From: an uncultured Fusobacterium sp.
GTDB lineage: Bacteria > Fusobacteriota > Fusobacteriia > Fusobacteriales > Fusobacteriaceae
Length of the DNA: 64,000 bases
Direction: 5' to 3'
NCBI GenBank assembly: GCA_900542625.1
Contig: UQOH01000001.1
Span: 43,255 to 107,254 of the forward strand
Numbering within the stretch: the stretch's first letter is position 1; each line of letters begins with the position of its first letter. Shown here one piece after another: positions 4,249-60,220 of the stretch. A program made the position numbers and the translations under genes. Below the pieces are notes generated by a model. The model ran no database searches. It was not told the DNA's origin and worked only from the letters and a program-made list of their open reading frames with translations.

Positions 4249-4260
4249 TAAATATATGAA

Positions 4261-43987: not shown

Positions 43988-45253
43988 TTAGTACCATCCT
44001 CTAACTTTCATAGCTTCAGCAATTCTCTTAATAGATTTCATGTAAGTAGCTTGTCTGAAAGATACGTTCATTTCTTCTTTTAAAGCCCAGATAGGTTTGA
44101 ATGCATCAACCATAGCTCTTTCTTCTTTTTCTTCAACTTCTTTTTCTGTCCAGTAGTATCCGTATAGGTTTTGTACCCATTCGAAGTAAGATACTGTAAC
44201 TCCTCCAGCGTTTGTTAAGATATCAGGAGTAATTACAACACCTTTTTTGTAAAGGATTTCGTCAGCTTCTGGAGTAGTTGGTCCGTTAGCTCCTTCACAT
44301 ATTAATTTAGCTTTTATTAATTCAGCTTCGTGGTTTTTGATTGCGTTTTCAAGAGCACATGGAGCGATAGCGAATACGTCTAAAGCCCAGAATTCGTCCA
44401 TAGAAATTTTTGTTGCTCCTGGAACAGAGAATAAAGTTCCGTCTTTTGCTTTTGCTTCTTCTAATTCAGCAAAAGTAAATCCTTCAGGTTTGTACATAGC
44501 GTAAGCTCCTTCGCTCTTAGCAAATTCAGCAACTGCTACAACTTTTCCACCTAATTTCATTATGTTTTTAACAGTATATTTTCCAACGTTTCCGAATCCT
44601 TGAACTGCTACAGTTTCTTTAGATAAGTCTGTTCCCATAGCTGTACAAGCTTCTCTCATAGTTACAGCAACACCGAATCCAGTTGCTTCGTTTCTTCCTT
44701 GAGATCCTCCATAAGTTAATGGTTTACCAGTGAATACTCCAATTGTTTGTTCTCCAGTTAATTTGTTGTACTCATCTTGCATCCATGCCATGATTTGTCC
44801 GTTTGTGTTTACGTCTGGAGCAGGAACGTCTACTTTTTCACCTAAGTATTTGTACATTCCTCTTACCCAACCTCTTGAAAGTTGCTCTAATTCTCTTTGA
44901 GATAATTCTGAAGGATCTACAGTGATTCCTCCTTTACCTCCACCATAAGGGATTCCAGTTACTTGACATTTGATACTCATCCAAATAGAAAGAGCTTTAA
45001 CTTCATCAGCGTTAACGTTTTGGTGGAAACGAATTCCTCCTTTGAAAGGTCCTACAGCGTCATTGTGAGCTGATCTGTATCCTTTGAAAGTTTTTATTGA
45101 ACCGTCATCCATTTTAACTGGAATAGAAATTTCGATAATTCTTTGAGGTTCTTTTAATAATTCATAAACTGCTGGGTCTGCTCCTAAAGCATCACATGCT
45201 TTTTTAACTTGAGCTTGTGCACTTAATAGTGGGTTTAAAGTTTCTTTTGACAT
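43988..45253 (-). CDS. gdhA: NAD(P)-glutamate dehydrogenase
   Basis: The ORF track extends to 45292. The ATG at 45253 follows AAGGAGGA. GDH motifs present (…KGGIRFH…, GFGNVG dinucleotide fold). Confidence 0.9.
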   Translation of the reverse strand: MSKETLNPLLSAQAQVKKACDALGADPAVYELLKEPQRIIEISIPVKMDDGSIKTFKGYRSAHNDAVGPFKGGIRFHQNVNADEVKALSIWMSIKCQVTGIPYGGGKGGITVDPSELSQRELEQLSRGWVRGMYKYLGEKVDVPAPDVNTNGQIMAWMQDEYNKLTGEQTIGVFTGKPLTYGGSQGRNEATGFGVAVTMREACTAMGTDLSKETVAVQGFGNVGKYTVKNIMKLGGKVVAVAEFAKSEGAYAMYKPEGFTFAELEEAKAKDGTLFSVPGATKISMDEFWALDVFAIAPCALENAIKNHEAELIKAKLICEGANGPTTPEADEILYKKGVVITPDILTNAGGVTVSYFEWVQNLYGYYWTEKEVEEKEERAMVDAFKPIWALKEEMNVSFRQATYMKSIKRIAEAMKVRGWY

Positions 45254-45654
45254 GATAAAATCCTCCTTAAATATTGTACCAAATAAAAACAAAATATGTT
45301 ATTGTAATGATACTGTGTAAAAATTAAAACTACATTTTATATTTGAATTATATATTTTTTGCTCTTAGTAGTCAATTACATTAAATCAATTTTTCATATA
45401 AAAAAAATATATAAAATATATGGAAGAATTGTATAGAAAAAGTATGATTAGATAAGAAAGATGTCAAAAAATGCCAAAATATAAAATAAAAATAAAAAAA
45501 TAATATTTCTTTATTATGGTATAGTAAGTGAGCGAAATAAAAAATTACTGTATAATATATTGACACAATAAACAATTATGTGATATAAATTGATTGAATA
45601 CATAATAAATTTTTTTATTTAATATTTTTTAATATAATTTAGGAGGTCTTATTA

Positions 45655-46650
45655 ATGAAAGTAATATTTTATGGAGTTCGTGACGTTGAGGTACCTATTT
45701 TTGAGGCAGTAAACAAAAAATTTGGTTATGACATGACTTTAATTCCAGAATATTTAACAAACGAAGAAACAACAAGAAAAGCAGAAGGAAATGAAGTAGT
45801 AGTATTAAGAGGAAACTGCTTTGCTACAAAAGAAAGATTAGATATCTATAAAGAAATGGGAGTTAAATATGTAATGACAAGAACAGTTGGCGTTAACCAT
45901 ATTGACGTTCCATATGCAAAAGAATTAGGATTCAAAACAGCTTTTGTTCCTTTCTATTCTCCAAACGCAATAGCAGAGTTAGCTCTTTCTTTAGCAATGA
46001 CTTTATTAAGAAACGTAGCATACACTGCTAATAAAACTAAATCTAGAAACTTTATTGTTGACAAACAAATGTTCTCTAGAGAAGTAAGAAACTGTACAGT
46101 TGGAGTTGTTGGATTAGGAAGAATCGGAATGACAGCTGCTAGATTATTCAAAGGTTTAGGAGCAAACGTAATCGGATACGATTTATTCCCTAAAACAGGA
46201 GTAGAAGACATAGTTACTCAAGTTTCTATGGATGAATTATTTGCTCAAGCTGATATCATTACTTTACACGCACCATACATTAAAGAAAATGGAAAAGTAA
46301 TAACTAAAGAAGCTTTTGCTAAAATGAAAGATGGAGTTATCTTAATCAATACAGGAAGAGGAGAACTTGTTGATACAGAAGCTCTAGTTGAAGCTTTAGA
46401 AAGCGGAAAAGTTTACGGAGCAGGAATAGATACTTTAGATAATGAAGTTTCTATATTCTTCAAAGACTTCGGAGATAAAGCTTTAGAAGATCCAGCATTT
46501 GAAAAATTAGTTCAAATGTATCCAAAAGTATTAATCACTCCACACGTAGGATCTTATACAGATGAAGCTGCTTTAAACATGATTGAAACTACTTTTGAAA
46601 ACATTAAGGAATATGTTGAAACTGGGGACTGTAAAAATAAAATAAAATAA
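45655..46650 (+). CDS. hgdH: (R)-2-hydroxyglutarate dehydrogenase
   Basis: 331 aa 2-hydroxyacid dehydrogenase, closely matching HgdH in length and sequence character ([18 protein letters not shown]… …TGDCKNKIK). Clustered with gct/gcd/hgd genes. Confidence 0.85.
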
Positions 46651-46693: not shown

Positions 46694-47884
46694 ATGAGTT
46701 TTTCATTTAACATGTATCAAACTTTAGGATTAGCTATTGTCCTTTTACTATTAGGTAACTGGATAAAAACAAAAGTTGGAGTATTAAGAAAATACTTCAT
46801 TCCTGCACCAGTTGTTGGAGGATTATTATTCTCTATATTAGCAACAATCGGTCACATGAACGGAATGTTTACTTTTGAATTTGACAACATTTTACAAGGA
46901 TTCTTCATGGTTGTATTCTTTACAAGTGTTGGATTCCTAGCAAGCTTTGCTCTTCTTAAAAAAGGTGGAGTTGCAGTTGGATTATTCTTAGTATGTGCAG
47001 TTGTATTAGTTATCATTCAAGACGCTGTTGGAGTTACTTTAGCTAAAATGCTTGGATTAAACCCAGGAATCGGATTAGCAGCAGGATCAATACCATTAAC
47101 AGGTGGACACGGAACAGCTGGAGCATTCGGACCATTCTTAGAAGAAAGAGGAGTTCAAGGAGCTACAGTAGTTGCTATCGCAGCAGCAACTTACGGACTT
47201 GTTGCAGGATGTATAATCGGTGGACCAATCGCTAAAAAATTAACTGACAGATTTAATTTAAAATGTACTGAAGGAACTAAAGAAGAAGCTAAAGCAGAAA
47301 CAACAGAAGCTGTTGAACCAGTTACAGAAAAATCTATGTTCCAAGCAGTATGTATGATCGGTATAGCTATGGGAATTGGAACTACTATAACTCCAATCAT
47401 TAAAAGTTTAGCAGGAATTACTTTACCAGCATACTTAATGCCAATGTTCGTTGCAGCTATAATGAGAAACGTAGTTGACGGAAGAGGAAAAACTCCAGTT
47501 GATGAAATTTCAATAGTTGGAAATATTTGTCTATCTCTATTCTTAGCAATGGCTATGATGACAATGAAGTTATGGCAGTTAGCTGACCTTGCTCTACCAT
47601 TAATGACTATCCTATTAGTTCAAACAGTAATCATGGGATTATATGCTTACTTCGTAACATTCAACGTTATGGGAAGAGATTACGACGCAGCTGTTATGGC
47701 AACAGGACACTGCGGATTCGGAATGGGAGCTACTCCAAACGCAATTGCAAACATGGAAGCTTTCACATCTGTAAACGGATTCTCAACAAAAGCATTCTTT
47801 GTTGTTCCATTAGTAGGATCTCTATTTATAGACTTCTTCAATGCGACAATAATTCAAACATTTGCTAGTATCTTTGTTGGATAA
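46694..47884 (+). CDS. gltS: sodium/glutamate symporter
   Basis: 396 aa GltS-family membrane protein with a conserved N-terminus (…KYFIPAPVVGGLLFSIL…). Confidence 0.9.
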   Translation: MSFSFNMYQTLGLAIVLLLLGNWIKTKVGVLRKYFIPAPVVGGLLFSILATIGHMNGMFTFEFDNILQGFFMVVFFTSVGFLASFALLKKGGVAVGLFLVCAVVLVIIQDAVGVTLAKMLGLNPGIGLAAGSIPLTGGHGTAGAFGPFLEERGVQGATVVAIAAATYGLVAGCIIGGPIAKKLTDRFNLKCTEGTKEEAKAETTEAVEPVTEKSMFQAVCMIGIAMGIGTTITPIIKSLAGITLPAYLMPMFVAAIMRNVVDGRGKTPVDEISIVGNICLSLFLAMAMMTMKLWQLADLALPLMTILLVQTVIMGLYAYFVTFNVMGRDYDAAVMATGHCGFGMGATPNAIANMEAFTSVNGFSTKAFFVVPLVGSLFIDFFNATIIQTFASIFVG

Positions 47885-47920
47885 TTTAGTAATTGAAAAA
47901 AGTTAAATAATTAATACTGA

Positions 47921-47958
47921 AGGTGTTCTGCTGAATAAAGTAGAACACCTTTTTGTTT
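47921..47958 (+). terminator. rho-independent terminator after gltS
   Basis: aggtgttct…agaacacct followed by ttttgttt. Confidence 0.65.
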
Positions 47959-48006
47959 ATGAAAATAATATTATCTGTATGTATTTTAAATAAAGTGAAA
48001 GAATAG

Positions 48007-48035
48007 TTGACGAAAATCTTTTTCTGTAATACAAT
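48007..48035 (+). promoter_or_regulatory. sigma70-like promoter (TTGACG-17-TACAAT), copy 1 of duplicated module
   Basis: Consensus-like hexamers. Aligns base-for-base with the promoter at 49853-49881. Confidence 0.5.
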
Positions 48036-48045
48036 TTAAATATAA

Positions 48046-48074
48046 ATGGAATGCGTTCCATTATATGGAATTTA
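48046..48074 (+). promoter_or_regulatory. operator-like motif ATGGAATGCGTTCCAT + ATGGAAT (copy 1)
   Basis: 16-bp palindrome with 6-bp arms and a 4-nt centre, followed by a direct repeat of the half-site. Located just downstream of the -10. Conserved in copy 2. Confidence 0.45.
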
Positions 48075-48101
48075 TAAAATGAAGTTTAAGGGGGAAATAA
48101 A

Positions 48102-48920
48102 ATGAAAAAAGTTCATAGTATGTATTTCAGTGGAACTGAAACTACTAAAAGAATGGTAAACTACATTGCTGATAAATTATCAGAACTGTTGAAAACAGAA
48201 AAAGAAGAATTTGATTTCAGCATTCTGGAAAATAGAAAATCAGAAAAGGTTTTTACAAGTGATGATATAGTTGTTTTTGGTGTTCCTGTAATAGCAGGAA
48301 GAGTTCCTAATGTATTATTAAAATATCTGGATACAATAAAAGGAAATGGAGCATTAGCAGTTCCTGTTGTACTTTATGGAAACAGAAATTATGATGATGC
48401 TCTAATAGAATTGAGAGATATTCTTGCAAAAGACGGGTTAAAACCTATTGCAGCCGGAGCATTTATAGGAGAACACTCATTTTCTAAAATTCTTGCTCAA
48501 GGAAGACCAGATAAAGACGACTTTGAAATAGCAGCAGATTTTGCAGAAAAAATTTATAAGAAGATAACAGATAAAGATTTTGATGCAGATAAATTAATAG
48601 AAGTTAAAGGGGAAACACCTTATCGTTACTATTACAAACCTAGAGATTCAAAAGGAGTTTTTGTAGATATACGTAAAGTAGTTCCAAAAACTAAAAAAGA
48701 ATTATGTGATGACTGCAAATTATGTGCAGAGATATGTCCAATGGGGTCAATAGATCATGAGGATCCATCAAAAATAATAGGAATTTGTATAAAATGCTGT
48801 GCATGTGTAAAGAGATGTCCTAAACAGGCTAAATATTATGATGATGAAGGATATTTATATCATCAGCATGAATTGGAAGATCAATTTAAACGCAGAGCAG
48901 TGCCAGAAATATTTTATTAA
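48102..48920 (+). CDS. EFR1-family ferredoxin (flavodoxin-like domain plus 2x[4Fe-4S])
   Basis: 272 aa with an N-terminal flavodoxin-like fold. Two CxxCxxCxxxCP motifs (CDDCKLCAEICP, CIKCCACVKRCP). Confidence 0.75.
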   Translation: MKKVHSMYFSGTETTKRMVNYIADKLSELLKTEKEEFDFSILENRKSEKVFTSDDIVVFGVPVIAGRVPNVLLKYLDTIKGNGALAVPVVLYGNRNYDDALIELRDILAKDGLKPIAAGAFIGEHSFSKILAQGRPDKDDFEIAADFAEKIYKKITDKDFDADKLIEVKGETPYRYYYKPRDSKGVFVDIRKVVPKTKKELCDDCKLCAEICPMGSIDHEDPSKIIGICIKCCACVKRCPKQAKYYDDEGYLYHQHELEDQFKRRAVPEIFY

Positions 48921-48955
48921 AAACTTTTTTGCAAAATAATAATAACGGAGGAAAA

Positions 48956-49702
48956 ATGGTTCAGAGCATACTAAGAGCTATAGAATTATTAGAAGTTTTA
49001 AACGGTACAGAAGAAAGTTACTCAATAGCTCAATTATCAGAAAAATTGAACTTGCCGCCAAGCACAATACATAGAATTCTGCAGACTTTATGCCATGCAA
49101 AATATGTTATACAAGACGAGAAATCTCATGATTATCAGTTAGGACCGGCTTTAATACCATTGGGATTAGGAGCTTCTAAAAGGCTTCATTTAAGAAATAT
49201 AGCTTATTCTGTAATAAAGAAGATAGCTGCAGAAACAGAGGAAGACAGCTTCTTAATTGTACCGATAGGAAATAAAGGAGTCGTGCTTGACAGAGTTGAC
49301 GGACCTAGTACTTTGAAAATAGTAGAAGAATTTGGATATGAAATGTATCTTCACAGTGGTGCAGTAAGAAAGGCTTTACTTGCTTTTCAAAGTCAGGAGT
49401 TTATAGATAATTATATAGAAGAGGTATTATCATCACCTAAGTGTTTTCCTAAAATTTCAAAAGAAGAACTTCTTGAATCTTTAAGAAAAACAAGAGAAGA
49501 GGGAGTTGCTTTATCTTCTGGAGATTATTTGAAAGGAACAATAGGAATAGGTGCTCCTGTATTTGATGCTTCAGGAAAAGCTGTTGCATCAGTAGGAATA
49601 GTTGTTCCAACTGTGAAGGTTGATGATGAAAAATTTGAAAATCTGAAAAATATCATAAAAAAACGTGCAAGAGAGTTATCTAACTCTTTAGGATATTTTT
49701 AG
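48956..49702 (+). CDS. IclR-family transcriptional regulator
   Basis: The ORF track starts at 48929 (TTG). The ATG (MVQSILRAIELLEVL) follows ACGGAGGA. IclR wHTH plus a C-terminal effector-binding domain. Confidence 0.8.
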   Translation: MVQSILRAIELLEVLNGTEESYSIAQLSEKLNLPPSTIHRILQTLCHAKYVIQDEKSHDYQLGPALIPLGLGASKRLHLRNIAYSVIKKIAAETEEDSFLIVPIGNKGVVLDRVDGPSTLKIVEEFGYEMYLHSGAVRKALLAFQSQEFIDNYIEEVLSSPKCFPKISKEELLESLRKTREEGVALSSGDYLKGTIGIGAPVFDASGKAVASVGIVVPTVKVDDEKFENLKNIIKKRARELSNSLGYF

Positions 49703-49852
49703 GTCGATAAAATAAAAAGTGAAATATATAAAAAAAGCATAATATGAATTTATAAAAAAGATAGTATATAAAGCTAATATATATATTTTAAATATTGTTT
49801 ATTAATAGTGCAGTATGAGTAAAAAAAGTCTATAAAGAAAGAAAAAAATATG

Positions 49853-49881
49853 TTGACTAAAAGGAACTTCCGTAATATAAT
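49853..49881 (+). promoter_or_regulatory. sigma70-like promoter (TTGACT-17-TATAAT), copy 2 of duplicated module
   Basis: Perfect -10 and a good -35. Drives gcdD-gcdC-gcdB-gctA-gctB. Confidence 0.5.
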
Positions 49882-49893
49882 TCAAATATAAAA

Positions 49894-49922
49894 ACGGAAT
49901 GCGTTCCACAATATGGAATTTA
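49894..49922 (+). promoter_or_regulatory. operator-like motif (A)CGGAATGCGTTCCA(C) + ATGGAAT (copy 2)
   Basis: Core GGAATGCGTTCC is identical to copy 1. Same spacing relative to the -10 and the same downstream ATGGAATTTA repeat. Confidence 0.45.
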
Positions 49923-49942
49923 AATTCAAGGGGGTGTTAGAA

Positions 49943-50227
49943 ATGTTTACTAGTAATGTTATGAGTATCGGAGAATCAATAATTATATCTGGTCTGGGAC
50001 TTACAATTGTTTTTATGGCCTTAGTTATACTTGCAGTTTTAATTTTGATATTCTCAAGAGTTTTTGAAGCAATAATTCCAAAAGAAGTACCTGTTAAAAC
50101 TGAAGTTAAAAAGGCAGCAGAACCTAATAACGACGAAGAATACGCAGTTTTAGTTTCAGCTATCCACGAAGAAATGAGATCTTTAAAAGGTAAGTTTAGA
50201 ATTACTTCAATAAAAGAAGTTAAATAG
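49943..50227 (+). CDS. gcdD: glutaconyl-CoA decarboxylase delta subunit (OadG-like membrane anchor)
   Basis: The ORF track starts at 49913. The ATG at 49943 follows AAGGGGG. Single TM helix in OadG style, first gene of the gcd operon. Confidence 0.7.
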   Translation: MFTSNVMSIGESIIISGLGLTIVFMALVILAVLILIFSRVFEAIIPKEVPVKTEVKKAAEPNNDEEYAVLVSAIHEEMRSLKGKFRITSIKEVK

Positions 50228-50278
50228 TTTGTAAAAAAATTAAAAAATAAAATTTAAAAAAGGAAGGGATTATAAATT

Positions 50279-50725
50279 ATGAAATATGTAGCAACTTTAA
50301 ACGGAAAAAGATATGAAGTGGAAATTGAAAGAGTTGATGAGTACAGACCATTAACAGCAGCAGAAATCGCATCAGGAGTTTCAGCTCCAGTTAAACCAGT
50401 AGTAGCAGCTCCAGTAGAAAAAGCAGCACCTGCACCAGCTCCAGTAGCAGCAGCACCTGCAGCTCCTGCTCCAACACCTGCACCAGCAGCAGCTCCTGCA
50501 GCAAGCGGAAGCGGAGAAACTGTAGTAAGTCCATTACCTGGAACAGTATTAGACGTTAAAGTAAACGTTGGAGATTCAGTTAAACTTGGACAAGTTGTTG
50601 TTATACTAGAAGCAATGAAAATGGAAACTGAAGTAGTTGCAGGTTGTGACGGAGTAGTAGAATCAATTTTAATCAAAAAAGGCGATGCAGTAGACACAGA
50701 TGCGGCTTTAGTTGTCCTTAAATAG
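50279..50725 (+). CDS. gcdC: glutaconyl-CoA decarboxylase gamma subunit (biotin carrier)
   Basis: 148 aa with an Ala/Pro-rich linker and a biotinyl domain carrying EAMKME. Confidence 0.85.
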
Positions 50726-50736
50726 GGAGGGAGAAA

Positions 50737-51876
50737 ATGAATTTCTTTTCAGTATTAAAAGGATTACTGCTTGAATCTGGGTTTATAGCAATGACTTGGC
50801 AGGAAGCAGTAATGATATTAGTATCATGTATCCTAGTTTATTTAGCAATAGTTAAAAAGTTTGAACCGTTATTACTTTTACCAATAGCTTTTGGAATGTT
50901 CTTAGCTAACTTACCTATGGCTGGTTTAATGAAAGAGGCTGAGCCTTGGTATTCATCTGGAATATTACAAATTATATACAAGGGAGTTAAGAGTAGCTTA
51001 TTCCCATGTTTAATATTCATGTGTGTTGGAGCAATGACAGACTTCGGTCCATTAATTGCAAACCCAATCAGTTTATTATTAGGAGCAGCAGCTCAATTTG
51101 GAATTTACATTGCGTTTATGCTTGCTAATGCTACTGGATTATTTACTCCAGGAGAAGCAGCAGCAATCGGTATCATCGGTGGAGCAGACGGACCAACAGC
51201 TATTTATATAGCTAACAACCTTGCACCACAATTAGTTGCACCAATTGCCGTAGCAGCTTATTCATATATGGCTCTTATTCCATTAATTCAGCCTCCAATT
51301 ATGAGACTGTTAACAACAGAAAAAGAAAGAAAAATTAAAATGGGACAACTTAGAAAAATAAGTAAAGCTGAAAAAATAGCTTTCCCAATAATAGTAACTT
51401 TATTCTGTTCTTTATTACTTCCATCAGTAGCTCCATTAATCGGTATGTTAATGTATGGAAACATAATGAGAGAATCAGGAGTTGTAGCACGTCTTTCTGA
51501 TACAGCTCAAAACGCTTTATGTAACATAGTTACAATTCTTTTAGGACTATCAGTTGGAGCAACTGCAAATGGAACAATATTCCTACGTACTCAAACATTA
51601 GCAATAGTTGCTATGGGACTTACAGCATTTGCTTTCTCAACAGCTGGAGGAGTTCTTTTAGGAAAATTATTATGTTTAATAACTGGTGGAAAAATAAATC
51701 CATTAATCGGATCAGCTGGAGTATCAGCAGTTCCAATGGCAGCTCGTGTTGCTCAAGTAGAAGGAGCAAAAGCTAACCCAACTAACTTCTTATTAATGCA
51801 TGCTATGGGACCAAACGTAGCAGGAGTTATCGGATCAGCAGTTGCAGCCGGATTCTTTATGATAATATTTAAATAA
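50737..51876 (+). CDS. gcdB: glutaconyl-CoA decarboxylase beta subunit (Na+-translocating, OadB family)
   Basis: 379 aa polytopic OadB/GcdB-like protein. Confidence 0.9.
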
Positions 51877-51929
51877 AAATTAAGTTTAAGTAAAATAAAA
51901 ACAATAATAGACAGGGGAGGTTTTTAACT

Positions 51930-52886
51930 GTGAGTAAAGTATGTTCATTATCAGAAGCAGTTTCAAAATTTGTAAAAAGTGGTGACCATATAGTAATCGG
52001 AGGTTTTACAACAAATAGAAAACCTTATGCATTAGTATATGAAATCTTAAGACAAGGACTTAAAGACTTTGTTGGTGAAGGTGGTCCTGCTGGTGGAGAT
52101 TGGGATATGCTGATAGGAGCCGACAGAGTAAAAGCTTATATTAACTGTTACACTGCCAACTCTGGAGTAACAAACGTTTCTAGACGTTTCAGAGAATACT
52201 ATGAAAAAGGTAAACTTCATATGGAAGATTACTCTCAAGACGTTATTATGCTTATGCTTCACGCAGCATCTTTAGGATTACCTTATTTACCAGTTCGTTT
52301 AATGATGGGAACTGACTTAGTAAACAAATGGGGAATCAGCAAAGAAGTACGTCAAACAATAGATAAATTACCAAACGATAAATTTGTATATGTAGATAAT
52401 CCATTTAACCCAGGAGAAAAAGTAGTAGCTGTACCAGTTCCAAAAATTGACGTAGCAGTTATCCACGTTCAAAAAGCATCTCCAGATGGAACTTGTTCTA
52501 TCATAGGTGACGAATTCCACGACGTTGACATCGCTATTGCAGCAAAACACTGTATAGTTACTTGTGAAGAGTTAGTAAGCAACGAAGAAATTCGTTTAGA
52601 TCCTACTAAAAACTCTATTCCATGTTTCTGCGTAGACGCTGTTGTTCATGCACCATATGGAGCACACCCTAGCCAATGTTATGGATACTATGACTATGAC
52701 AACGCATTCTTCAAAATGTATGACGTAGTAAGTAAAACTCAAGAAGACTTCGATAAATTCTTAGACGAATGGGTTTACGGTGTAGAAAATCATGAGGCAT
52801 ACCTAAATAAATTAGGTGCAACTCGTTTATTAGATTTAAGAGTAGTTCCTGGATTAGGATACGCTTCTAAAAAAGTTGGAAAATAA
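51930..52886 (+). CDS. gctA: glutaconate CoA-transferase subunit A
   Basis: 318 aa, GTG start with RBS GGGGAGG. GctA-like (…SGDHIVIGGFTTNRKPYALVYEIL…). Confidence 0.9.
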   Translation: MSKVCSLSEAVSKFVKSGDHIVIGGFTTNRKPYALVYEILRQGLKDFVGEGGPAGGDWDMLIGADRVKAYINCYTANSGVTNVSRRFREYYEKGKLHMEDYSQDVIMLMLHAASLGLPYLPVRLMMGTDLVNKWGISKEVRQTIDKLPNDKFVYVDNPFNPGEKVVAVPVPKIDVAVIHVQKASPDGTCSIIGDEFHDVDIAIAAKHCIVTCEELVSNEEIRLDPTKNSIPCFCVDAVVHAPYGAHPSQCYGYYDYDNAFFKMYDVVSKTQEDFDKFLDEWVYGVENHEAYLNKLGATRLLDLRVVPGLGYASKKVGK

Positions 52887-52914
52887 AAAACACGGAAAAG
52901 GAGTGAAATAAAGA

Positions 52915-53715
52915 ATGGCTGATTACACTAAATATACAAATAAAGAAATGCAAGCAGTTACAATTGCAAAACAAATTAAAAACGGGCAAGTAGTTATCGT
53001 TGGAACAGGTCTTCCTCTAATCGGAGCATCTGTTGCAAAAAGAGTATTTGCACCTGAATGTAATATAATAGTAGAAAGCGGACTTATGGATTGTAATCCA
53101 ATAGAAGTTCCACGTAGTGTTGGAGACAACCGTTTCATGGCTCACTGTGGAGTACAATGGCCAAACGTTCGTTTCATAGGATTCGAAGCTAATGAATGGT
53201 TACACGATTCTGAAAGATTAGTTGCTTTCATAGGAGGAGCTCAAATAGACCCTTATGGAAACGTTAACTCAACTTCAATTGGAGATTACCATCATCCAAA
53301 AACTCGTTTCACTGGTAGTGGAGGAGCAAACGGAATTGCAACTTACTCTAATACAATAATAATGATGCAGCACGAAAAACGTCGTTTCATAGACAAAGTT
53401 GACTATATAACAAGTCCAGGATGGATGGATGGACCAGGAGGAAGAGAAAGAGTTGGACTTCCTGGAAACAGAGGACCAATAATGGTTGTTACAGATAGAG
53501 GAATCTTAAAATTCGACGAAGAAACTAAACGTATGTATCTAGCTGGGTACTATCCAACTTCATCTCCAGAAGATGTATTAGAGAACACAGGATTTGATAT
53601 AGATGTATCAAGAGCTGTATTATTAGAAGCTCCAGATCCAGAAGTTATTCGTATGATTCGTGAAGAGATCGACCCTGGACAAGCATTTATAAAAGTTCCA
53701 GTAGAAGAAAAATAA
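52915..53715 (+). CDS. gctB: glutaconate CoA-transferase subunit B
   Basis: 266 aa GctB-like protein with a catalytic Glu region. Matches the A. fermentans GctB length. Confidence 0.9.
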   Translation: MADYTKYTNKEMQAVTIAKQIKNGQVVIVGTGLPLIGASVAKRVFAPECNIIVESGLMDCNPIEVPRSVGDNRFMAHCGVQWPNVRFIGFEANEWLHDSERLVAFIGGAQIDPYGNVNSTSIGDYHHPKTRFTGSGGANGIATYSNTIIMMQHEKRRFIDKVDYITSPGWMDGPGGRERVGLPGNRGPIMVVTDRGILKFDEETKRMYLAGYYPTSSPEDVLENTGFDIDVSRAVLLEAPDPEVIRMIREEIDPGQAFIKVPVEEK

Positions 53716-53737
53716 TTAAAATTTAATAAAAAGAATA

Positions 53738-53781
53738 AACAAGCACAAAAAACGGAGGTAGAAGTCCGTTTGTGCTTGTTT
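53738..53781 (+). promoter_or_regulatory. two-tier stem-loop between gctB and gcdA
   Basis: Outer stem aaacaagcacaaa/tttgtgcttgttt (13 bp) enclosing inner stem acgga/tccgt. There is no T-run after it, so it is a possible attenuator or processing hairpin. Confidence 0.45.
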
Positions 53782-53827
53782 ATATAGACATAAGCTTTGT
53801 AAATATAAAAATTTCAGGAGGAAAAAA

Positions 53828-55585
53828 ATGGGTCAATATTCAATGCCTAAATATTTTCAAAATATGCCAACAGTAGGAAAAGGACTTGCTGCAAAGAATG
53901 CAGATAACGAAGCTAGCTTAAGAGCAGTTGAAGAGGAATTAACAAAGTTAATAAAAGAAATTCAAGCAGAAGGTCGTCCTGACGAATCAATGAACAAAGT
54001 AGGACAAATGACAGCTTTACAACGTGTAAACGCTTTAGTTGACAAAGGAACTTGGTGTCCTTTAAACAGCTTATTCAACCCTGAAGGAAACTCTAACGGA
54101 TCAACTAGTATAGTTAAAGGTCTTGGACGTATCAATGGAAAATGGGCTGTTGTAGTTGCTTCAGACAACAAAAAGAAAGCAGGAGCATGGGTTGCTGGAC
54201 AAGCTGAAAACCTATTAAGAGCTTCTGATACAGCTAAATGCTTAAATATACCTTTAGTATATGTATTACAATGTAGTGGAGTAGATTTCCCTGAACAGGA
54301 AAAAGTTTATCCTAACCGTCGTGGTGGAGGAACTCCATTCTTCAGAAATGCTGAACTTCAACAATTAGGAATTCCAGTAATCGTAGGAATCTACGGAACT
54401 AACCCAGCTGGTGGAGGATACCACAGTATCAGTCCTACTATCCTTGTAGCTCACCAAAAAGCTAATATGGCAGTTGGAGGAGCAGGAATCCTTGGAGGAA
54501 TGAATCCTAAAGGATTTATAGATATGGAAGGTGCAGAACAAATAGCTGAAATGGTTGAAAAATCAGGAAAACAAACTCCTCCAGGATCAGTATCAGTTCA
54601 CTTTGGTGAAACTGGATTCTTCAGAGAAGTTTATGCAGAAGAAATGGGTGTTATAGAAGGAATTAAAAAATACATTGATATGCTTCCAGCTTACAACGTT
54701 GATTTCTTCCGTGTTGCTGATGCTGTTCAACCTGCATTACCAGCAGATGATTTATATTCAATCATCCCTATGAACCAAAAGAAAACTTATGACATTTACG
54801 AAGTAATCGGACGTTTATTTGACGGAAGTGAATTTGCTGAATACAGAAAAGGTTACGGTCCAGAAATCGTAGCTGGTATAGCTAAAGTAAACGGATTATT
54901 AGTAGGAGTTATAGGAAACGTTCAAGGATTCTTAATGAAATATCCTGAATATAAAGAAAATTCTATCGGAATTGGTGGAAAATTATACCGTCAAGGTCTA
55001 ATAAAAATGAACGAATTTGTAACTATGTGTGGAAGAGATAAACTTCCTATCGTTTGGTTACAAGATACAACAGGTATCGACGTAGGAGACGACGCAGAAA
55101 AGGCAGAATTACTAGGATTAGGACAATCTCTAATCTACTCTATTGAAAACTCTAAAGTTCCTCAATTAGAAGTAATTTTAAGAAAAGGATCTGCAGCTGC
55201 TCACTATGTATTAGGAGGACCACAAGGAAACAACACTAACGCATTCTCTATTGGAACTGCAGCAACTGAAATCTATGTAATGCCTGGAGAAACTGCTGCT
55301 TCAGCAATGTACTCTAGAACTCTTGCAAAAGATAAGAAAGCAGGAAAAGATTTACAGCCTACAATAGACAAAATGAACCAAATGATCGAAGACTTCACAA
55401 CTAAGTCTAGACCTAAGTTCTGTGCTGAAAAAGGAATGGTAGATGAAATAGTAGACTTAACAAGCATCCGTGCTTATATGGAAGCATTCGTTGAATCAGC
55501 TTACCAAAATCCAAAATCTATCTGTGCATTCCATCAAATGCTAACACCTAGAGCAATCAGAGAATTTGAAAGTTTAAAAAAATAA
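53828..55585 (+). CDS. gcdA: glutaconyl-CoA decarboxylase alpha subunit (carboxyltransferase)
   Basis: 585 aa with carboxyltransferase N- and C-domains. Matches GcdA length and character. Confidence 0.9.
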   Translation: MGQYSMPKYFQNMPTVGKGLAAKNADNEASLRAVEEELTKLIKEIQAEGRPDESMNKVGQMTALQRVNALVDKGTWCPLNSLFNPEGNSNGSTSIVKGLGRINGKWAVVVASDNKKKAGAWVAGQAENLLRASDTAKCLNIPLVYVLQCSGVDFPEQEKVYPNRRGGGTPFFRNAELQQLGIPVIVGIYGTNPAGGGYHSISPTILVAHQKANMAVGGAGILGGMNPKGFIDMEGAEQIAEMVEKSGKQTPPGSVSVHFGETGFFREVYAEEMGVIEGIKKYIDMLPAYNVDFFRVADAVQPALPADDLYSIIPMNQKKTYDIYEVIGRLFDGSEFAEYRKGYGPEIVAGIAKVNGLLVGVIGNVQGFLMKYPEYKENSIGIGGKLYRQGLIKMNEFVTMCGRDKLPIVWLQDTTGIDVGDDAEKAELLGLGQSLIYSIENSKVPQLEVILRKGSAAAHYVLGGPQGNNTNAFSIGTAATEIYVMPGETAASAMYSRTLAKDKKAGKDLQPTIDKMNQMIEDFTTKSRPKFCAEKGMVDEIVDLTSIRAYMEAFVESAYQNPKSICAFHQMLTPRAIREFESLKK

Positions 55586-55710
55586 TAAATAACATAAAAA
55601 TTTGAAAAATCTAAAATAGGGAAAAGATGTAGTTATTATTTAAAGAATAATTTTTTATTGGTTGGGGTTATTTTATCCCAACCAATAGTACATCATATTG
55701 GGGGGACTAA

Positions 55711-56913
55711 ATGCTTATTTTAAAATTAGATATATTTCAATCACTACTAATAACAGTTTTATTAATATACTTTGGAAAATACGTTAGAAATCTATTTCCA
55801 ATACTAAAAAAATATTGTATTCCATCAGCAGTTGTTGGAGGGTTATCATTTGCTATTTTAACTTGTATTCTATACAAAATGGGAATAGCTGAAGTTAAAT
55901 TTGATATAAAAGTAACTAACCAGTTATTCTATTGTGTATTCTTTGCAGCAAGCGGAACATCAGCAGGTCTTGCATTGTTGAAAAAAGGTGGAAAATTAGT
56001 TGCTATCTTTACTGTGTTGGCAGCAGTTCTGGCTTTCTTACAAAATGCAGTGGCAGTTTCATTAGGAAAAGTATTAGGTGTTGCTCCGTTAATAGCTTTA
56101 ATGACAGGTTCTATACCAATGACAGGAGGACATGGAAATGCAGCATCTTTTGCTCCTGTAGCTGAATCTTTCGGTGCAGTGGGAGCTATGGAAGTTGCAG
56201 TTGCAGCAGCAACATTCGGACTAATTTCCGGAAGTATTATTGGAGGACCAATAGGAAACAGATTAGTACAAAAATATAATCTAAAATATGATAATTTAGA
56301 TGCAGGGGATTTAGGTGTTGAAGCAGCACAGAAATTCTTTGTAGACAAAGAAAGATCACTTAATGCAGTTTGTCTTATGTTCGTAGCAACTGGAATAGGG
56401 TCAATTTTATTTGCAATATTAAAAGTTGTTCTTCCAGGGGTAACTCTTCCAATCCATGTATTATGTATGTTTGGTGGATTAATGATAAGACTTGGATTTG
56501 ACGCAACAGGACATGAAGATGAAGCACTTTATGAATCTATGGATATAGTTGGAGAAATTTCTCTTGCAATGTTCGTAACAATGTCAATTATGAGTATGAA
56601 ATTATGGCAGTTAGCAGATCTTGCTATTCCAATGGTAATACTTCTATTGGCACAAGTTCTTCTTGCATACTTATTCTGTACTCAATTAACATTCAGACTG
56701 TTAGGTAAAAATTATGATGCAGCTGTAATGGCAGTAGGACATACAGGATTTGGTCTTGGAGCAGTTCCAGTATCAATGGCAACAATGAAGAGTGTGTGTG
56801 ACAAATATGCTTATTCAAAATTAGCTTTCTTTGTAGTGCCCGTAATAGGTGGATTAATAAGTAACTTTACAAATGCAGCAATAATAACTATGTTCTTGAA
56901 TATGTGCAAATAA
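55711..56913 (+). CDS. gltS: sodium/glutamate symporter paralog
   Basis: 400 aa GltS-family protein, roughly 40-50% identical by eye to the copy at 46694. Confidence 0.85.
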   Translation: MLILKLDIFQSLLITVLLIYFGKYVRNLFPILKKYCIPSAVVGGLSFAILTCILYKMGIAEVKFDIKVTNQLFYCVFFAASGTSAGLALLKKGGKLVAIFTVLAAVLAFLQNAVAVSLGKVLGVAPLIALMTGSIPMTGGHGNAASFAPVAESFGAVGAMEVAVAAATFGLISGSIIGGPIGNRLVQKYNLKYDNLDAGDLGVEAAQKFFVDKERSLNAVCLMFVATGIGSILFAILKVVLPGVTLPIHVLCMFGGLMIRLGFDATGHEDEALYESMDIVGEISLAMFVTMSIMSMKLWQLADLAIPMVILLLAQVLLAYLFCTQLTFRLLGKNYDAAVMAVGHTGFGLGAVPVSMATMKSVCDKYAYSKLAFFVVPVIGGLISNFTNAAIITMFLNMCK

Positions 56914-56957
56914 ATTTAAATTGATTAGATAAGAGAAATAAAATTTCGGAGGTAAGA

Positions 56958-57743
56958 ATGAGCGTTTATACAATGGGAATCGACATAGGATCTACAGCAT
57001 CAAAAAGTGTAATTATGAAAGATGGAAAAGAAATCGTTTGTAAAGCATTAATTGATGTAGGGGCAGGAACAAGCGGACCTGGTAGAGTAATTGAAGAAAT
57101 CCTTGAAAAAAGCGGAATGAAAAAAGAAGACATGGCATGTGTTCTGGCAACAGGATACGGACGTAACTCTTTATTAGATCTCGCTGATTATCAAATGAGT
57201 GAGCTAAGCTGTCATGCTAAAGGTGCTCATTATTTATTTCCAAATGTCCGTACAGTAATTGATATTGGCGGACAGGATGTAAAAATATTAAAAATAGGTG
57301 CAAACGGAATTTTAATGAACTTTGTAATGAACGATAAATGTGCAGCTGGAACAGGAAGATTCTTAGATGTAATGGCAAAAGTTCTTGAGGTTAAAGTAAG
57401 TGACCTTGAAAAATTGTCAGCAGAATCAACTAAAACAGTAAACATTAGTTCTACTTGTACTGTATTTGCTGAGTCTGAAGTTATTTCTCAGCTTGCAAAA
57501 GCAACAGATAAAAGAGATATAATAAAAGGAATTCACAGATCAGTAGCAGGAAGAGTTGGAGGGCTTGCTAAAAGAATAGGATTAGAAAATGATCTTGTTA
57601 TGACAGGTGGAGTTGCCCTTAACCATGGTGTTGTATCAGCTCTTGAGGAAGAGTTAAAGTTTAAAATATTAACTTCTCCATTAACTCAATATACAGGAGC
57701 AATTGGAGCAGCATTATTTGCTTATCAAAAAGCAACAAAATAG
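56958..57743 (+). CDS. hgdC: 2-hydroxyglutaryl-CoA dehydratase activator (component A)
   Basis: 261 aa BadF/BadG/BcrA/BcrD-type ATPase (MSVYTMGIDIGSTASK…). HgdC length and cluster context. Confidence 0.9.
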   Translation: MSVYTMGIDIGSTASKSVIMKDGKEIVCKALIDVGAGTSGPGRVIEEILEKSGMKKEDMACVLATGYGRNSLLDLADYQMSELSCHAKGAHYLFPNVRTVIDIGGQDVKILKIGANGILMNFVMNDKCAAGTGRFLDVMAKVLEVKVSDLEKLSAESTKTVNISSTCTVFAESEVISQLAKATDKRDIIKGIHRSVAGRVGGLAKRIGLENDLVMTGGVALNHGVVSALEEELKFKILTSPLTQYTGAIGAALFAYQKATK

Positions 57744-57777
57744 AAGCAGTAAAAATAAAAAAGGAGTGGAATAAAAC

Positions 57778-59022
57778 ATGAGCGAAGTAAATAAGCCAGT
57801 AGAAGAAAAAAAACCAGCTAAGGTTGTGCTTAGAGAATTAGTAGAAAGAGAAGTATATCAAGCAGCATGGGAAGCTAAAAAAAATGGAGAGCCAGTAGGT
57901 TGGTCATCATCTAAATTCCCTTCTGAAATATGCGAAGCTTTAGGATTAAAACTAGTTTATCCTGAAAACCAAGCAGCAGCTATCGGAGCAAAACATGGTG
58001 GAGAAAGAATGTGTGAACATGCAGAAGCTATGGGATTTGACAACGATATCTGTGCTTATGCAAGAATCAACTTAGCATATGCAGCTGGATTCGAAGCAGA
58101 AGAAAAACCAATGCCTCAACCAGATTTCGTATTATGTTGTAACAACATCTGTAACTGTATGACAAAATGGTATGAAAACCTTGCTAGAATGCATAACATT
58201 CCATTAATCATGATAGACGTTCCATACAGCAATACAAAAGAAGTAAGCCAAGCTCAAGTAGATTACTTAAGAGGACAATTTGATGACGCTATAGTACAAT
58301 TAGAGAAAATAGCTGGTCGTAAAATGGATATGAAAAAATTTGAAGAAGCTTGTGAAAACGCTAACCGTTCAGCAAAAGCATGGTTAAAAGTATGTTCTTA
58401 CTTACAATATAAACCATCTCCATTTGCTGGATTTGACTTATTCAACCACATGGCTGATATAGTAACAGCTCGTGCTAAAAAATCAACAGCTGAAGCTTTT
58501 GAGGCATTAGCAGAAGAATTAGAAGCAAACGTAAAAGCAAACAAATCAACTTGGAAATATGATGAAAACTACAGAATCATGTTTGAAGGAATCCCTTGTT
58601 GGCCACAATTACAAAAATTATTTGCACCATTAAAAGAAAAAGGAATCAACACAACAGCAGTTGTTTATGCACCTGCATTCGGATTCGTTTACAACAACAT
58701 GGACGAATTAATGAGAGCTTACTGTGTTGCACCTAACTCAGTTTGTCTTGAAAAAGGTGTTGAGTGGAGAGAAACTCTATGTAAAGAAAACCACGTAGAC
58801 GGAATATTAGTTCACTACAACAGAAGCTGTAAACCATGGAGCGGATACATGCCTGAAATGGAAAGAAGATTCCGTAAAGATTTAGGAGTAGCAGTTGCAG
58901 GATTTGATGGTGACCAAGCTGACCCTAGAAACTTCTCTGACGAGCAATACAGAACTCGTGTTGAGGGATTATTCGAAGTAATGGAAGCAAACAGAGCTAA
59001 AAAAGAGGGAGGAGACAAATAA
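57778..59022 (+). CDS. hgdA: 2-hydroxyglutaryl-CoA dehydratase alpha subunit
   Basis: 414 aa HgdA/FldB-family protein with Cys ligands. Followed by hgdB with an overlapping stop/start. Confidence 0.85.
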   Translation: MSEVNKPVEEKKPAKVVLRELVEREVYQAAWEAKKNGEPVGWSSSKFPSEICEALGLKLVYPENQAAAIGAKHGGERMCEHAEAMGFDNDICAYARINLAYAAGFEAEEKPMPQPDFVLCCNNICNCMTKWYENLARMHNIPLIMIDVPYSNTKEVSQAQVDYLRGQFDDAIVQLEKIAGRKMDMKKFEEACENANRSAKAWLKVCSYLQYKPSPFAGFDLFNHMADIVTARAKKSTAEAFEALAEELEANVKANKSTWKYDENYRIMFEGIPCWPQLQKLFAPLKEKGINTTAVVYAPAFGFVYNNMDELMRAYCVAPNSVCLEKGVEWRETLCKENHVDGILVHYNRSCKPWSGYMPEMERRFRKDLGVAVAGFDGDQADPRNFSDEQYRTRVEGLFEVMEANRAKKEGGDK

Positions 59023-60152
59023 TGACTAGAATTGAGGAGTTATTAAATAATTTTAGAGAAATAGCATATAATCCAGAAAAGCAATTAGCTAAATATAAAG
59101 CTGAAGGGAAAAAAGTAATCGGATGTTTCCCTTACTATGTTCCTGAAGAAATAGTATACGCTGCAGGAATGGTTCCATTTGGAGTTTGGGGAACTCACGG
59201 AACAATCAGCAGAGCAAAAGAATATTTTGCATCTTTCTATTGTACAATAGCTCAAATGAACTTAGAAATGGCATTAGAAGGAAAATTTGATGGATTATCA
59301 GGAGTTATCTTATCATCTATGTGTGATACTTTACGTCCATTAACTCAAAACTTTAAAGTGGCAATACCTCAATTACCATTTATGTTCTTAGCACATCCAC
59401 AAAACAGAAAACCTGAATATGGAATTAAATTCACTATGCATGAATTTGGTAGAGTAAAAGGACAATTAGAAGAAATAGCTGGGCATAAAATTGAAGATGA
59501 AAAAATGTTTGAAGCTTTCAAAGTTTATAACGAAAGCAGAGCTACAAGAAAAGAGTTCGTTAAACTTGCTGGACAACATCCAGAAGCAGTTTCTGCAGTA
59601 AACAGATCAGCTGTTCTAAAAAGTGCTTTCTTTATGTTAAAAGATGAGCATACAGCTATGTTAAAAGAATTAAACGCAGAATTAGCTAAATTACCAGAAA
59701 CAAAATGGGACGGAGTTAAAGTTCTTGTTTCAGGAATTATAAATGACAACCCTACATTATTAGGATTATTCGATGAGTACAAAATAGCTATCGTAGCTGA
59801 TGACGTTGCTCACGAATCAAGAGCATTCACAACAGATGTTCCTATGGATATAGAAGATCCTATCAGAGCATTAGCAGTTCAATTTGCTAACCAAGATAAC
59901 GATACAATTCTATATGATCCATTAATCGAAGAGCGTCCAAAATATGTTGCTAACAAAGCAAAAGAAGCTGGAGCAGACGGTGTTGTAGTAGTTATGATGC
60001 AGTTCTGTGACCCAGAAGAAATGGAATATCCATCATTAAGAAAAGCTCTTGATGAAGCTGGATTACCTCATATCAAATTTGGATTTGATCAACAAATGGT
60101 AGACTTCGGTCAAGCAAGAACATCATTACAAGCTTTCGCAGAAAGCCTATAA
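59022..60152 (+). CDS. hgdB: 2-hydroxyglutaryl-CoA dehydratase beta subunit
   Basis: 376 aa HgdB/FldC-family protein. Confidence 0.85.
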   Translation: MTRIEELLNNFREIAYNPEKQLAKYKAEGKKVIGCFPYYVPEEIVYAAGMVPFGVWGTHGTISRAKEYFASFYCTIAQMNLEMALEGKFDGLSGVILSSMCDTLRPLTQNFKVAIPQLPFMFLAHPQNRKPEYGIKFTMHEFGRVKGQLEEIAGHKIEDEKMFEAFKVYNESRATRKEFVKLAGQHPEAVSAVNRSAVLKSAFFMLKDEHTAMLKELNAELAKLPETKWDGVKVLVSGIINDNPTLLGLFDEYKIAIVADDVAHESRAFTTDVPMDIEDPIRALAVQFANQDNDTILYDPLIEERPKYVANKAKEAGADGVVVVMMQFCDPEEMEYPSLRKALDEAGLPHIKFGFDQQMVDFGQARTSLQAFAESL

Positions 60153-60190
60153 TTTTAAGCTCCCAAACTTAACTTAAATAAAAAATTAAA

Positions 60191-60220
60191 AAGCAACAGG
60201 AAACTGTTGCTTTTTAAGAT
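60191..60220 (+). terminator. rho-independent terminator after hgdB
   Basis: aaagcaacag-gaaa-ctgttgcttt followed by tt. Confidence 0.6.

Follow-up and report, generated by a model that had tools for sequence, protein, structure and literature searches.

Fusobacteria and butyrate-forming gut Clostridia gain energy by fermenting glutamate via 2-hydroxyglutarate, a classic pathway with a well-studied biochemistry. In a stretch of 64,000 nucleotides (nt) from an uncultured Fusobacterium sp. (GCA_900542625.1, contig UQOH01000001.1, positions 43,255 to 107,254; hereafter the window), two neighboring transcription units begin with nearly the same promoter and leader, and both leaders carry a palindromic element. 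One unit, behind promoter P1, encodes an EFR1-family ferredoxin and an IclR-family transcription factor, and the other, behind promoter P2, is the gcd-hgd operon of the hydroxyglutarate pathway. The locus raises the question of whether the shared element functions as DNA or as RNA, and which molecule reads it. In this study, the element is best read as a DNA operator composed of three half-sites, and it is quite probable that this operator is read by the IclR protein encoded at 48956-49702, which would repress both the ferredoxin-iclR unit and the gcd-hgd operon.

Two copies of a promoter-operator module

The first-pass annotation of this DNA, made from the letters alone, had described the two modules as near-duplicates, and the alignment of 47987-48101 with 49833-49942 bore this out with 82% identity over ~130 aligned columns. 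The likeness took in A-rich sequence upstream, the spacer and the region of the ribosome-binding site (RBS). P1 and P2, which had been proposed as consensus promoters, were the top two sigma-70-like matches in 47800-50300. The -35, the -10, the palindromic core, the third half-site and the RBS were all located where they had been placed (Table 1), and, as also described earlier, copy 1 was a full 16-bp palindrome and copy 2 was not. Moreover, the claim that the duplicated core goes beyond chance was sustained. The 12-mer GGAATGCGTTCC occurred exactly only at P1 and P2 in the whole 64 kb, and with up to 2 mismatches it gave 7 matches against 1.44 expected, a number that 0 of 100 shuffles reached. 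With a weight matrix derived from 24 related sites, P1 and P2 scored 39.1 and 42.6 bits, respectively, and nothing in the rest of the window exceeded 8 bits, so that the same scan found no further operator copy in the hgdH-gltS promoter (45293-45654) or in the intra-operon gaps. One near-match, at 45026-45037, falls within the open reading frame (ORF) 43988-45292. A reading of the module as a repeat or mobile element was considered and rejected, because only two copies are present in the window and both occupy orthologous promoter positions in other species.

The repeated unit had been described as a palindrome followed by a repeat of ATGGAATTTA. The element itself stood, but its unit is better described as a set of three RYGGAAT half-sites that alternate in orientation (-> <- ->), which gives GGAA-N4-TTCC-N7-GGAA and the consensus RYGGAAT-NN-ATTCCRY-WAT-RYGGAAT. 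Half-sites 1 and 2 form a 16-bp palindrome, and half-sites 2 and 3 form a 17-bp palindrome, ATTCCAYA-A-TRYGGAAT. At both P1 and P2, 3 nt separate the first pair from the third half-site, ATGGAAT. Among 24 distinct gcd-linked sites, the columns G-AAT, TT-CA and GGAAT were invariant, and the same-sense GGAAT copies were 19 nt apart in every one (24/24). The inverted GGAA/TTCC half-sites fit the inverted repeats of 14-19 bp reported for operators of the IclR family, and the 19-nt period agrees with the additional half-sites expected 18-22 nt away in this family for tetramer binding.

Distribution of the operator and its linkage to iclR

Loci of the Fusobacteriaceae were collected by a genome scan with the window IclR protein and by exact-protein look-ups. 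The closest IclR loci came from metagenome-assembled genomes (MAGs) of uncultured Fusobacterium with 85-87% IclR identity. In two loci at this identity, L001 and L002, synteny and promoter P1 were kept, and the element was present at both promoters with TTCC changed to TTTC and with other single changes. In other Fusobacterium lineages, whose IclR proteins are 56-88% identical, the site lies 7-12 nt past the -10, and promoter P2 was kept in every aligned Fusobacterium gcd promoter. In F. perfoetens and its relatives (L026-L028, L037, L038), as in a second group (L032-L036, L040, L108), iclR is found directly upstream of gcdD and the ferredoxin gene is lacking. The gcd promoters of the F. perfoetens group and of L032-L036 both read TTGAC(G/T)-17-TATAAT, followed after 12 nt by ATGAAATGCATTCCATAATATGGAAT and ATGAAATACATTCCATAATGTGGAAT, respectively. 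Two Fusobacteriaceae MAGs with IclR identities of 56-57% (L030 and L031) carry a lone palindrome, ATGGAATCTGTTCCAT and ACGGAATCGATTCCGC, after the TACAAT -10 of iclR itself. The first-pass annotation had held that absence of the motif from the orthologous promoters of relatives would speak against a shared operator; in the alignment, the motif was present there in several Fusobacterium lineages. A small palindrome, GGAACTTCC, was also observed at 49863-49871 in the P2 spacer; it probably lies outside the operator, since its counterparts in L001 and L002 differ (AGAAATTTCC and AGAAAAATCC).

Autoregulation of iclR had likewise been suggested, and this part of the proposal would hold for certain lineages, in which the site stands at the promoter of the iclR unit. 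No site was found in the iclR upstream regions of the F. perfoetens-like and L032-like genomes or of the Lachnospiraceae locus L161, which indicates that autoregulation is not universal. Because the site is lacking wherever iclR has an unrelated promoter of its own, P1 seems to have arisen within one clade by duplication of the P2 promoter-operator, the copy being placed before the ferredoxin gene and iclR. In F. russii (L039), where the gcd operon has no adjacent iclR, no site was found in the 15-kb locus; as this gcd operon is without the operator, control of the pathway must differ in that species. At 3254-5908 of the F. russii locus, the gcd operon is preceded by genes for a glutamate dehydrogenase and a divergent 2-hydroxyacid dehydrogenase and not by iclR.

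Beyond the phylum, metagenomes were scanned with the degenerate 24-mer GRAATNNRTTYCAYWATRYGGAAT, a search blind to genomic context, which returned at least 120 loci. In 102 of the 120 matches listed, a gcd/gct gene starts downstream, with a median distance of 72 nt to GcdD, and approximately 11 matches listed were intragenic and chance-like. In L076, a member of hit class B, the other members of which precede gcdD, the contig ends before the gene. The gcd-linked matches fell into at least 10 flank classes, mostly from Firmicutes of 46-52% GC. The largest class was 98-99% identical at the nucleotide level over 3.7 kb to the genome locus L161, and thus of the same species, which is probably Clostridium fessum. 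In L161, the IclR ortholog (52% identical) lies at the far end of the hgd operon, as in the Lachnospiraceae loci L004-L020, whereas in L105 and L128 a divergent iclR adjoins the site, with IclR identities of 38% and 47%, respectively. At positions that the search pattern left free, R-Y preceded the first GGAAT in 24 of 24 gcd-linked variants; in addition, the center of these variants was mostly GC and an A-run stood 5' of the site, features that the chance matches lacked. The earlier view of the regulon was thus supported for control of the gcd/gct operon and had to be widened from Fusobacterium to the Firmicutes, which also carry the site.

The motif also adjoins distant IclR paralogs that are 30-32% identical to the window protein, namely in L049 (site at 1742), with an amino-acid permease and a peptidase-like gene as neighbors, and in L109 (1206-1231), beside a GcvT-like gene. 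In L116 (site at 1624), it lies upstream of a KduI-like gene, the neighbors in all three loci being judged from sequence. These contexts suggest that the motif type is common to several IclR clades with different regulons.

Several further features were observed at the Firmicute loci. L105, a metagenomic Firmicute, carries a pair of operators ahead of gctA that are separated by 178 nt (7134-7145 and 7312-7323, minus strand of the locus). The second of them overlaps a TATAAT, and the gct-gcd operon of L105 contains an EFR1-ferredoxin homolog that is 59% identical to the window protein encoded at 48102-48920. In L128, a wide inverted repeat, GGAAT-N20-ATTCC (1901-1930), is located 50 nt upstream of the main operator towards the divergent iclR and may be an auxiliary site. 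In classes A, C and D (L041-L159), a block (T/C)ATAATTTTTCACAAAG(A/G)AA is conserved ~22-40 nt downstream of the operator in otherwise diverged leaders and probably represents the -10 and start region of the operon promoter. In the Lachnospiraceae (L161, 9524-9982; L003-L020), an apparently co-transcribed ORF of ~150 aa directly precedes iclR; its product is hydrophobic at the N-terminus, ends in an acidic tail rich in Glu and Asp, and gave no Pfam match.

The probable reader of the element and the alternatives

The window IclR protein matched PF09339 (1.1e-12) and PF01614 (6e-27) and aligned over its full length (E = 1.4e-28) with Thermotoga maritima TM0065 (PDB 1MKM), the closest solved structure of the family. 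TM0065 has the same two-domain layout and serves as a structural template only, with no common operator or regulon established. The protein belongs to the same family as E. coli IclR (E = 2e-21, 23% identity) and has a similar recognition helix, LPPSTIHRIL in the window protein and LPNSTTHRLL in E. coli. The pattern LP(P/S)STxHR(I/L)L was kept in every site-linked IclR, including paralogs of 30-38% identity; the helix differs in a Lentisphaerae homolog (L022), and no such site was found in its locus as examined. Against NCBIfam, the protein reached 66.5 bits for IclR (cutoff 380) and 71.3 bits for AllR (cutoff 406), values so far below the cutoffs that it is not an ortholog of either, and as it remained below every equivalog cutoff it is an unnamed member of the family.

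Comparison with described systems, based on excerpts of the survey by Suvorova & Gelfand (2021, PMC8222616), placed the operator within known IclR-family architecture. E. coli IclR binds TGGAAATNATTTCCA and AllR binds TTGGAAWAWTWTTCCAA (PMC8222616). The window operator has the inverted GGAA/TTCC core in common with these sites, and both E. coli proteins are promoter-overlapping repressors; furthermore, the upstream region of E. coli iclR holds ATGAAAATGATTTCCAC, in an autoregulatory arrangement as proposed for P1. The systems differ in the gap between GGAA and TTCC, which is 4 nt in the window operator and 5 nt in the E. coli sites (7-1-7 box), in the third half-site, which the E. coli sites lack, and in the regulon, which is anaerobic glutamate fermentation in the window and glyoxylate or allantoin metabolism in E. 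coli. In many groups of the family, tandem sites occur 19-21 nt apart and are taken to reflect tetramer binding, and the predicted motifs include aTTCCACAATGCGGAAt, found in actinobacterial groups and in the B. cereus group BC2979/BC2980 (PMC8222616). Half-sites 2 and 3 of the window (ATTCCAYAATRYGGAAT) are essentially the same as aTTCCACAATGCGGAAt, and the sites of the B. cereus group abut one another, forming GGAA-N4-TTCC at a period of 19 nt with alternation and spacing as in the window. This TTCC-N7-GGAA class, however, belongs to other genes and other taxa, and in the window only three of the four half-sites of a full tandem are recognizable. An extra direct half-site is also known for PcaU, PobR and HmgR, and the direct repeat is required for PcaU binding (PMC8222616). 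These regulators likewise belong to the IclR family and recognize three repeats, two inverted and one direct, but their half-sites are of the GTNCG type with other spacing, and their sites lie upstream of the -35 and activate aromatic-acid catabolism, whereas the window site lies downstream of the -10. With 94.4 bits for TIGR02431 (PcaR/PcaU/PobR; cutoff 284.75), the window protein falls outside this subfamily, with whose sites the window site has the three-repeat layout in common.

The proposal that IclR co-controls the ferredoxin-iclR and gcd/gct units was therefore supported by the conserved site, by the linkage of IclR to the pathway across phyla and by the absence of the site in F. russii, and the conserved E. 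coli-like helix together with the published family architecture pointed in the same direction. On this evidence, IclR is the most likely binder of the operator. Several points weigh against this interpretation. Three loci carrying IclR (L023, L025 and L029) showed no site in the DNA examined, outside which their gcd promoters lay, as did those of L030 and L031. The negative case, F. russii, is a single genome of which 15 kb were covered, and iclR may be present elsewhere in it. In the Lachnospiraceae, iclR is ~10 kb from the site, a linkage to the operon and not to the promoter. In addition, the metagenome scan required the motif, so that independent evidence comes only from the genomic surroundings of the matches and from the positions left unconstrained, and in several Firmicute classes the site abuts the likely -35, a position that fits activation as well as repression of the kind seen at E. 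coli aceB.

Three other explanations were weighed against repression by IclR. The first-pass annotation had itself offered a 5'-terminal stem-loop on both transcripts, in which the inverted repeat would work in the mRNA and affect stability, translation or attenuation. In all Fusobacterium promoters examined, the element follows the -10 and precedes the RBS, and the transcripts should therefore include it; a 7-bp hairpin (-5.7 kcal/mol) is possible in copy 1, and the TTCC to TTTC change of L001 and L002 would keep G-U pairs. However, the folds of the leaders were no more stable than those of shuffled sequence (leaders, z = -0.41 and -0.25; 32-nt cores, z = -1.5 and -1.1), the two copies gave different minimum-energy folds, and a search of Rfam at a permissive E-value returned unrelated eukaryotic families, the best at 0.43. 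When covariation was compared with strict conservation across the 24 sites, neither of the two possible helices covaried and the sequence itself was conserved: the covariation scores of 0.107 and 0.116 stood against shuffled means of 0.113 and 0.132, and 319/500 and 485/500 shuffles, respectively, scored at least as high. Moreover, the GGAA to GAAA change in F. perfoetens and L032 gives an uncompensated A-C mismatch in mid-stem, and the conserved G-AAT, TT-CA and GGAAT include a third same-sense copy that is superfluous for a hairpin. In Fusobacterium the element follows the -10; in Firmicute classes A, C and D, a hexamer resembling a -10 is conserved downstream of the element, and a promoter at that hexamer would leave the element untranscribed. 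An RNA function is accordingly given very little credence. A true protein operator could also serve a regulator other than the adjacent IclR, such as a global amino-acid regulator, and inverted GAAT/ATTC repeats do serve other regulator families, as in ARG boxes. The closeness of iclR would in that case be due to chance or point to another target of IclR. Such a regulator would be in keeping with the distant iclR of the Lachnospiraceae and with the three IclR-bearing Fusobacterium loci in which no site was seen. ArgR was rejected as a candidate because, on comparison of the motifs, the ARG box (TGAAT-W4-ATTCA in 18-bp boxes 21 nt apart) does not fit the GGAAT core, the 2-nt GC center and the 19-nt period. 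A LysR-type regulator beside the Firmicute sites was likewise discarded, as the divergent 311-aa gene resembles, from sequence reading only, a ketopantoate-reductase-type oxidoreductase. A different regulator is improbable given that IclR co-occurs with the site in at least six gene arrangements and two phyla, that the motif adjoins distant IclR paralogs with other neighbors (L049, L109), and that the recognition helix is conserved along with a motif whose architecture fits the IclR motifs published, as far as the excerpted survey goes. No different regulator gene is consistently near the site; the upstream genes in the Firmicute classes encode a reductase-like protein, a glutaminyl-tRNA synthetase (GlnRS) and a MocR-like protein at varying distance.

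The third explanation accepts IclR as the reader and makes it mainly an activator, or a dual repressor and activator like PcaU. The site of Firmicute classes A, C and D stops immediately before the likely -35, which is an activator-like position, and TATAAT or CATAAT together with TTTTCACAAAG is conserved ~22 nt downstream of it; furthermore, the PcaU/PobR-type proteins that recognize a palindrome plus a direct repeat are activators, according to the same excerpts. Judged from the position of the site in these classes, IclR may act differently from lineage to lineage or have a dual role. In Fusobacterium, however, the sites follow near-consensus -35 and -10 hexamers that should need no activation, and the 17-23 nt between site and RBS leave no space for another promoter. 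The first half-site in L128, and likewise at the second operator of L105, coincides in part with the -10 TATAAT, and the E. coli IclR and AllR paradigms for the GGAA box are repressors. Activation as the main function, or a dual role, is thus considered unlikely.

Repression by IclR can be outlined as follows. With transcription starts predicted from the -10 alone and taken ~7 nt past it, the operator would span ~+5 to +30 at P1 and ~+7 to +32 at P2. From this location over ~+5 to +32 of near-consensus promoters we infer repression, and at P1 autorepression. IclR would bind the operator as a dimer of dimers and would block, exclude or trap RNA polymerase, thereby silencing the EFR1-ferredoxin-iclR unit, its own included, and the 10-kb gcdDCB-gctAB-gcdA-gltS-hgdCAB operon. 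A small pathway-related acid bound by the IclR_C domain would release the repressor; by analogy, an acid of this kind is the expected effector.

Genes of the locus and implications for the pathway

Gene order was established from Pfam, NCBIfam, the ORF listing and terminator scans (Table 1), and it follows from this order that P2 heads a complete hydroxyglutarate-pathway operon and P1 the ferredoxin-iclR unit. The hairpin that closes the hgdH-gltS unit marks the 5' boundary of the P1 module. The P2 operon encodes glutaconyl-CoA decarboxylase, glutaconate CoA-transferase, a glutamate symporter, and 2-hydroxyglutaryl-CoA dehydratase with its activator.

Table 1. Promoters, operators, genes and terminators of the locus, in window coordinates
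Feature	Position	Strand	Details
D-2-hydroxyacid dehydrogenase (hgdH)	45655-46650	+	upstream of P1
Na+/glutamate symporter (gltS)	46694-47884	+	upstream of P1
Terminator-like hairpin, end of upstream hgdH-gltS unit	47919-47952	+	14-bp stem, then T run
Promoter P1	48007-48035	+	TTGACG 48007-48012, 17-nt spacer, TACAAT 48030-48035; 10/12 match
P1 operator, half-sites 1 and 2	48046-48061	+	ATGGAATGCGTTCCAT = ATGGAAT-GC-GTTCCAT; predicted ~+5 to +20
P1 operator, half-site 3	48065-48071	+	ATGGAAT; orientation as half-site 1, 19 nt from half-site 1
P1 RBS	48088-48094	+	AAGGGGG; ATG start 48102
EFR1-family ferredoxin	48102-48920	+	flavodoxin-like N-terminal part and 2x[4Fe-4S] motif; first gene of P1 unit
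IclR-family transcription factor	48956-49702	+	HTH_IclR and IclR_C; proposed binder
Promoter P2	49853-49881	+	TTGACT 49853-49858, 17-nt spacer, TATAAT 49876-49881; 11/12 match
P2 operator, half-sites 1 and 2	49894-49909	+	ACGGAATGCGTTCCAC = ACGGAAT-GC-GTTCCAC; predicted ~+7 to +22
P2 operator, half-site 3	49913-49919	+	ATGGAAT
P2 RBS	49928-49934	+	AAGGGGG; ATG start 49943
Target operon gcdD-gcdC-gcdB-gctA-gctB-gcdA-gltS-hgdC-hgdA-hgdB	49943-60152	+	Pfam/NCBIfam, ORFs, synteny
Terminator hairpin closing P2 operon	60186-60217	+	14-bp stem

The ferredoxin scored 81.9 bits against NF038196 (cutoff 75), and in the 35 nt between its stop codon and iclR neither a promoter nor a terminator was detected. 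The start of iclR was assigned to the ATG at 48956, which gives 248 aa as in its homologs, and not to the TTG at 48929; for gcdD, the start lies at the ATG 49943 and not at the in-frame ATG 49913, which falls inside the third half-site. Two paralogous Na+/glutamate symporter genes are present (46694-47884 and 55711-56913), with ~41% protein identity and 72-74% nucleotide identity over stretches of ~100 nt, and only the second is under the operator. Within gcdC (50360-50503), short GCA/CCA-rich repeats coding for Ala and Pro recur with a period of 9-12 nt and presumably form the flexible linker of the biotin carrier.

The dehydratase activated by HgdC needs reduced ferredoxin or flavodoxin. The placement of an EFR1 ferredoxin gene under the same operator in the window and in L105 suggests that this protein supplies low-potential electrons to the activator HgdC.

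Full-text literature searches turned up no publication in which gcd, gct or hgd genes, or regulation in Fusobacterium, were connected with an IclR regulator, no occurrence of the motif string and no account of the transcriptional control of the pathway. In the tables of PMC8222616, as excerpted here, no Fusobacterium or hydroxyglutarate-pathway group was found, which is not proof that it was never described. The arrangement is a standard IclR-type switch, which extends a known class and founds no new one.

Taken together, the observations allow a broader and rather doubtful proposal, namely that this IclR clade is a dedicated sensor-regulator of the hydroxyglutarate pathway in Fusobacteriota and in gut Lachnospiraceae and Clostridia, responsive to an acid, acting through a two-mode operator and tied to a ferredoxin. 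If this were true, the clade would sense an acid specific to the pathway, for example (R)-2-hydroxyglutarate or glutaconate, one operator would act in two modes, by a block downstream of the -10 in Fusobacterium and by action abutting the -35 in Clostridia, and the EFR1-type ferredoxin would be tied to the pathway as electron donor for the dehydratase activator. In conclusion, the locus offers a concrete regulator-operator pairing that can be tested and whose conservation reaches from Fusobacterium to an abundant Clostridium species of the human gut, together with an operator consensus that can be used for genome-wide regulon scans. It also provides a candidate functional link between the EFR1-family ferredoxin and the hydroxyglutarate pathway, and possibly a natural sensor for an acid of this pathway.

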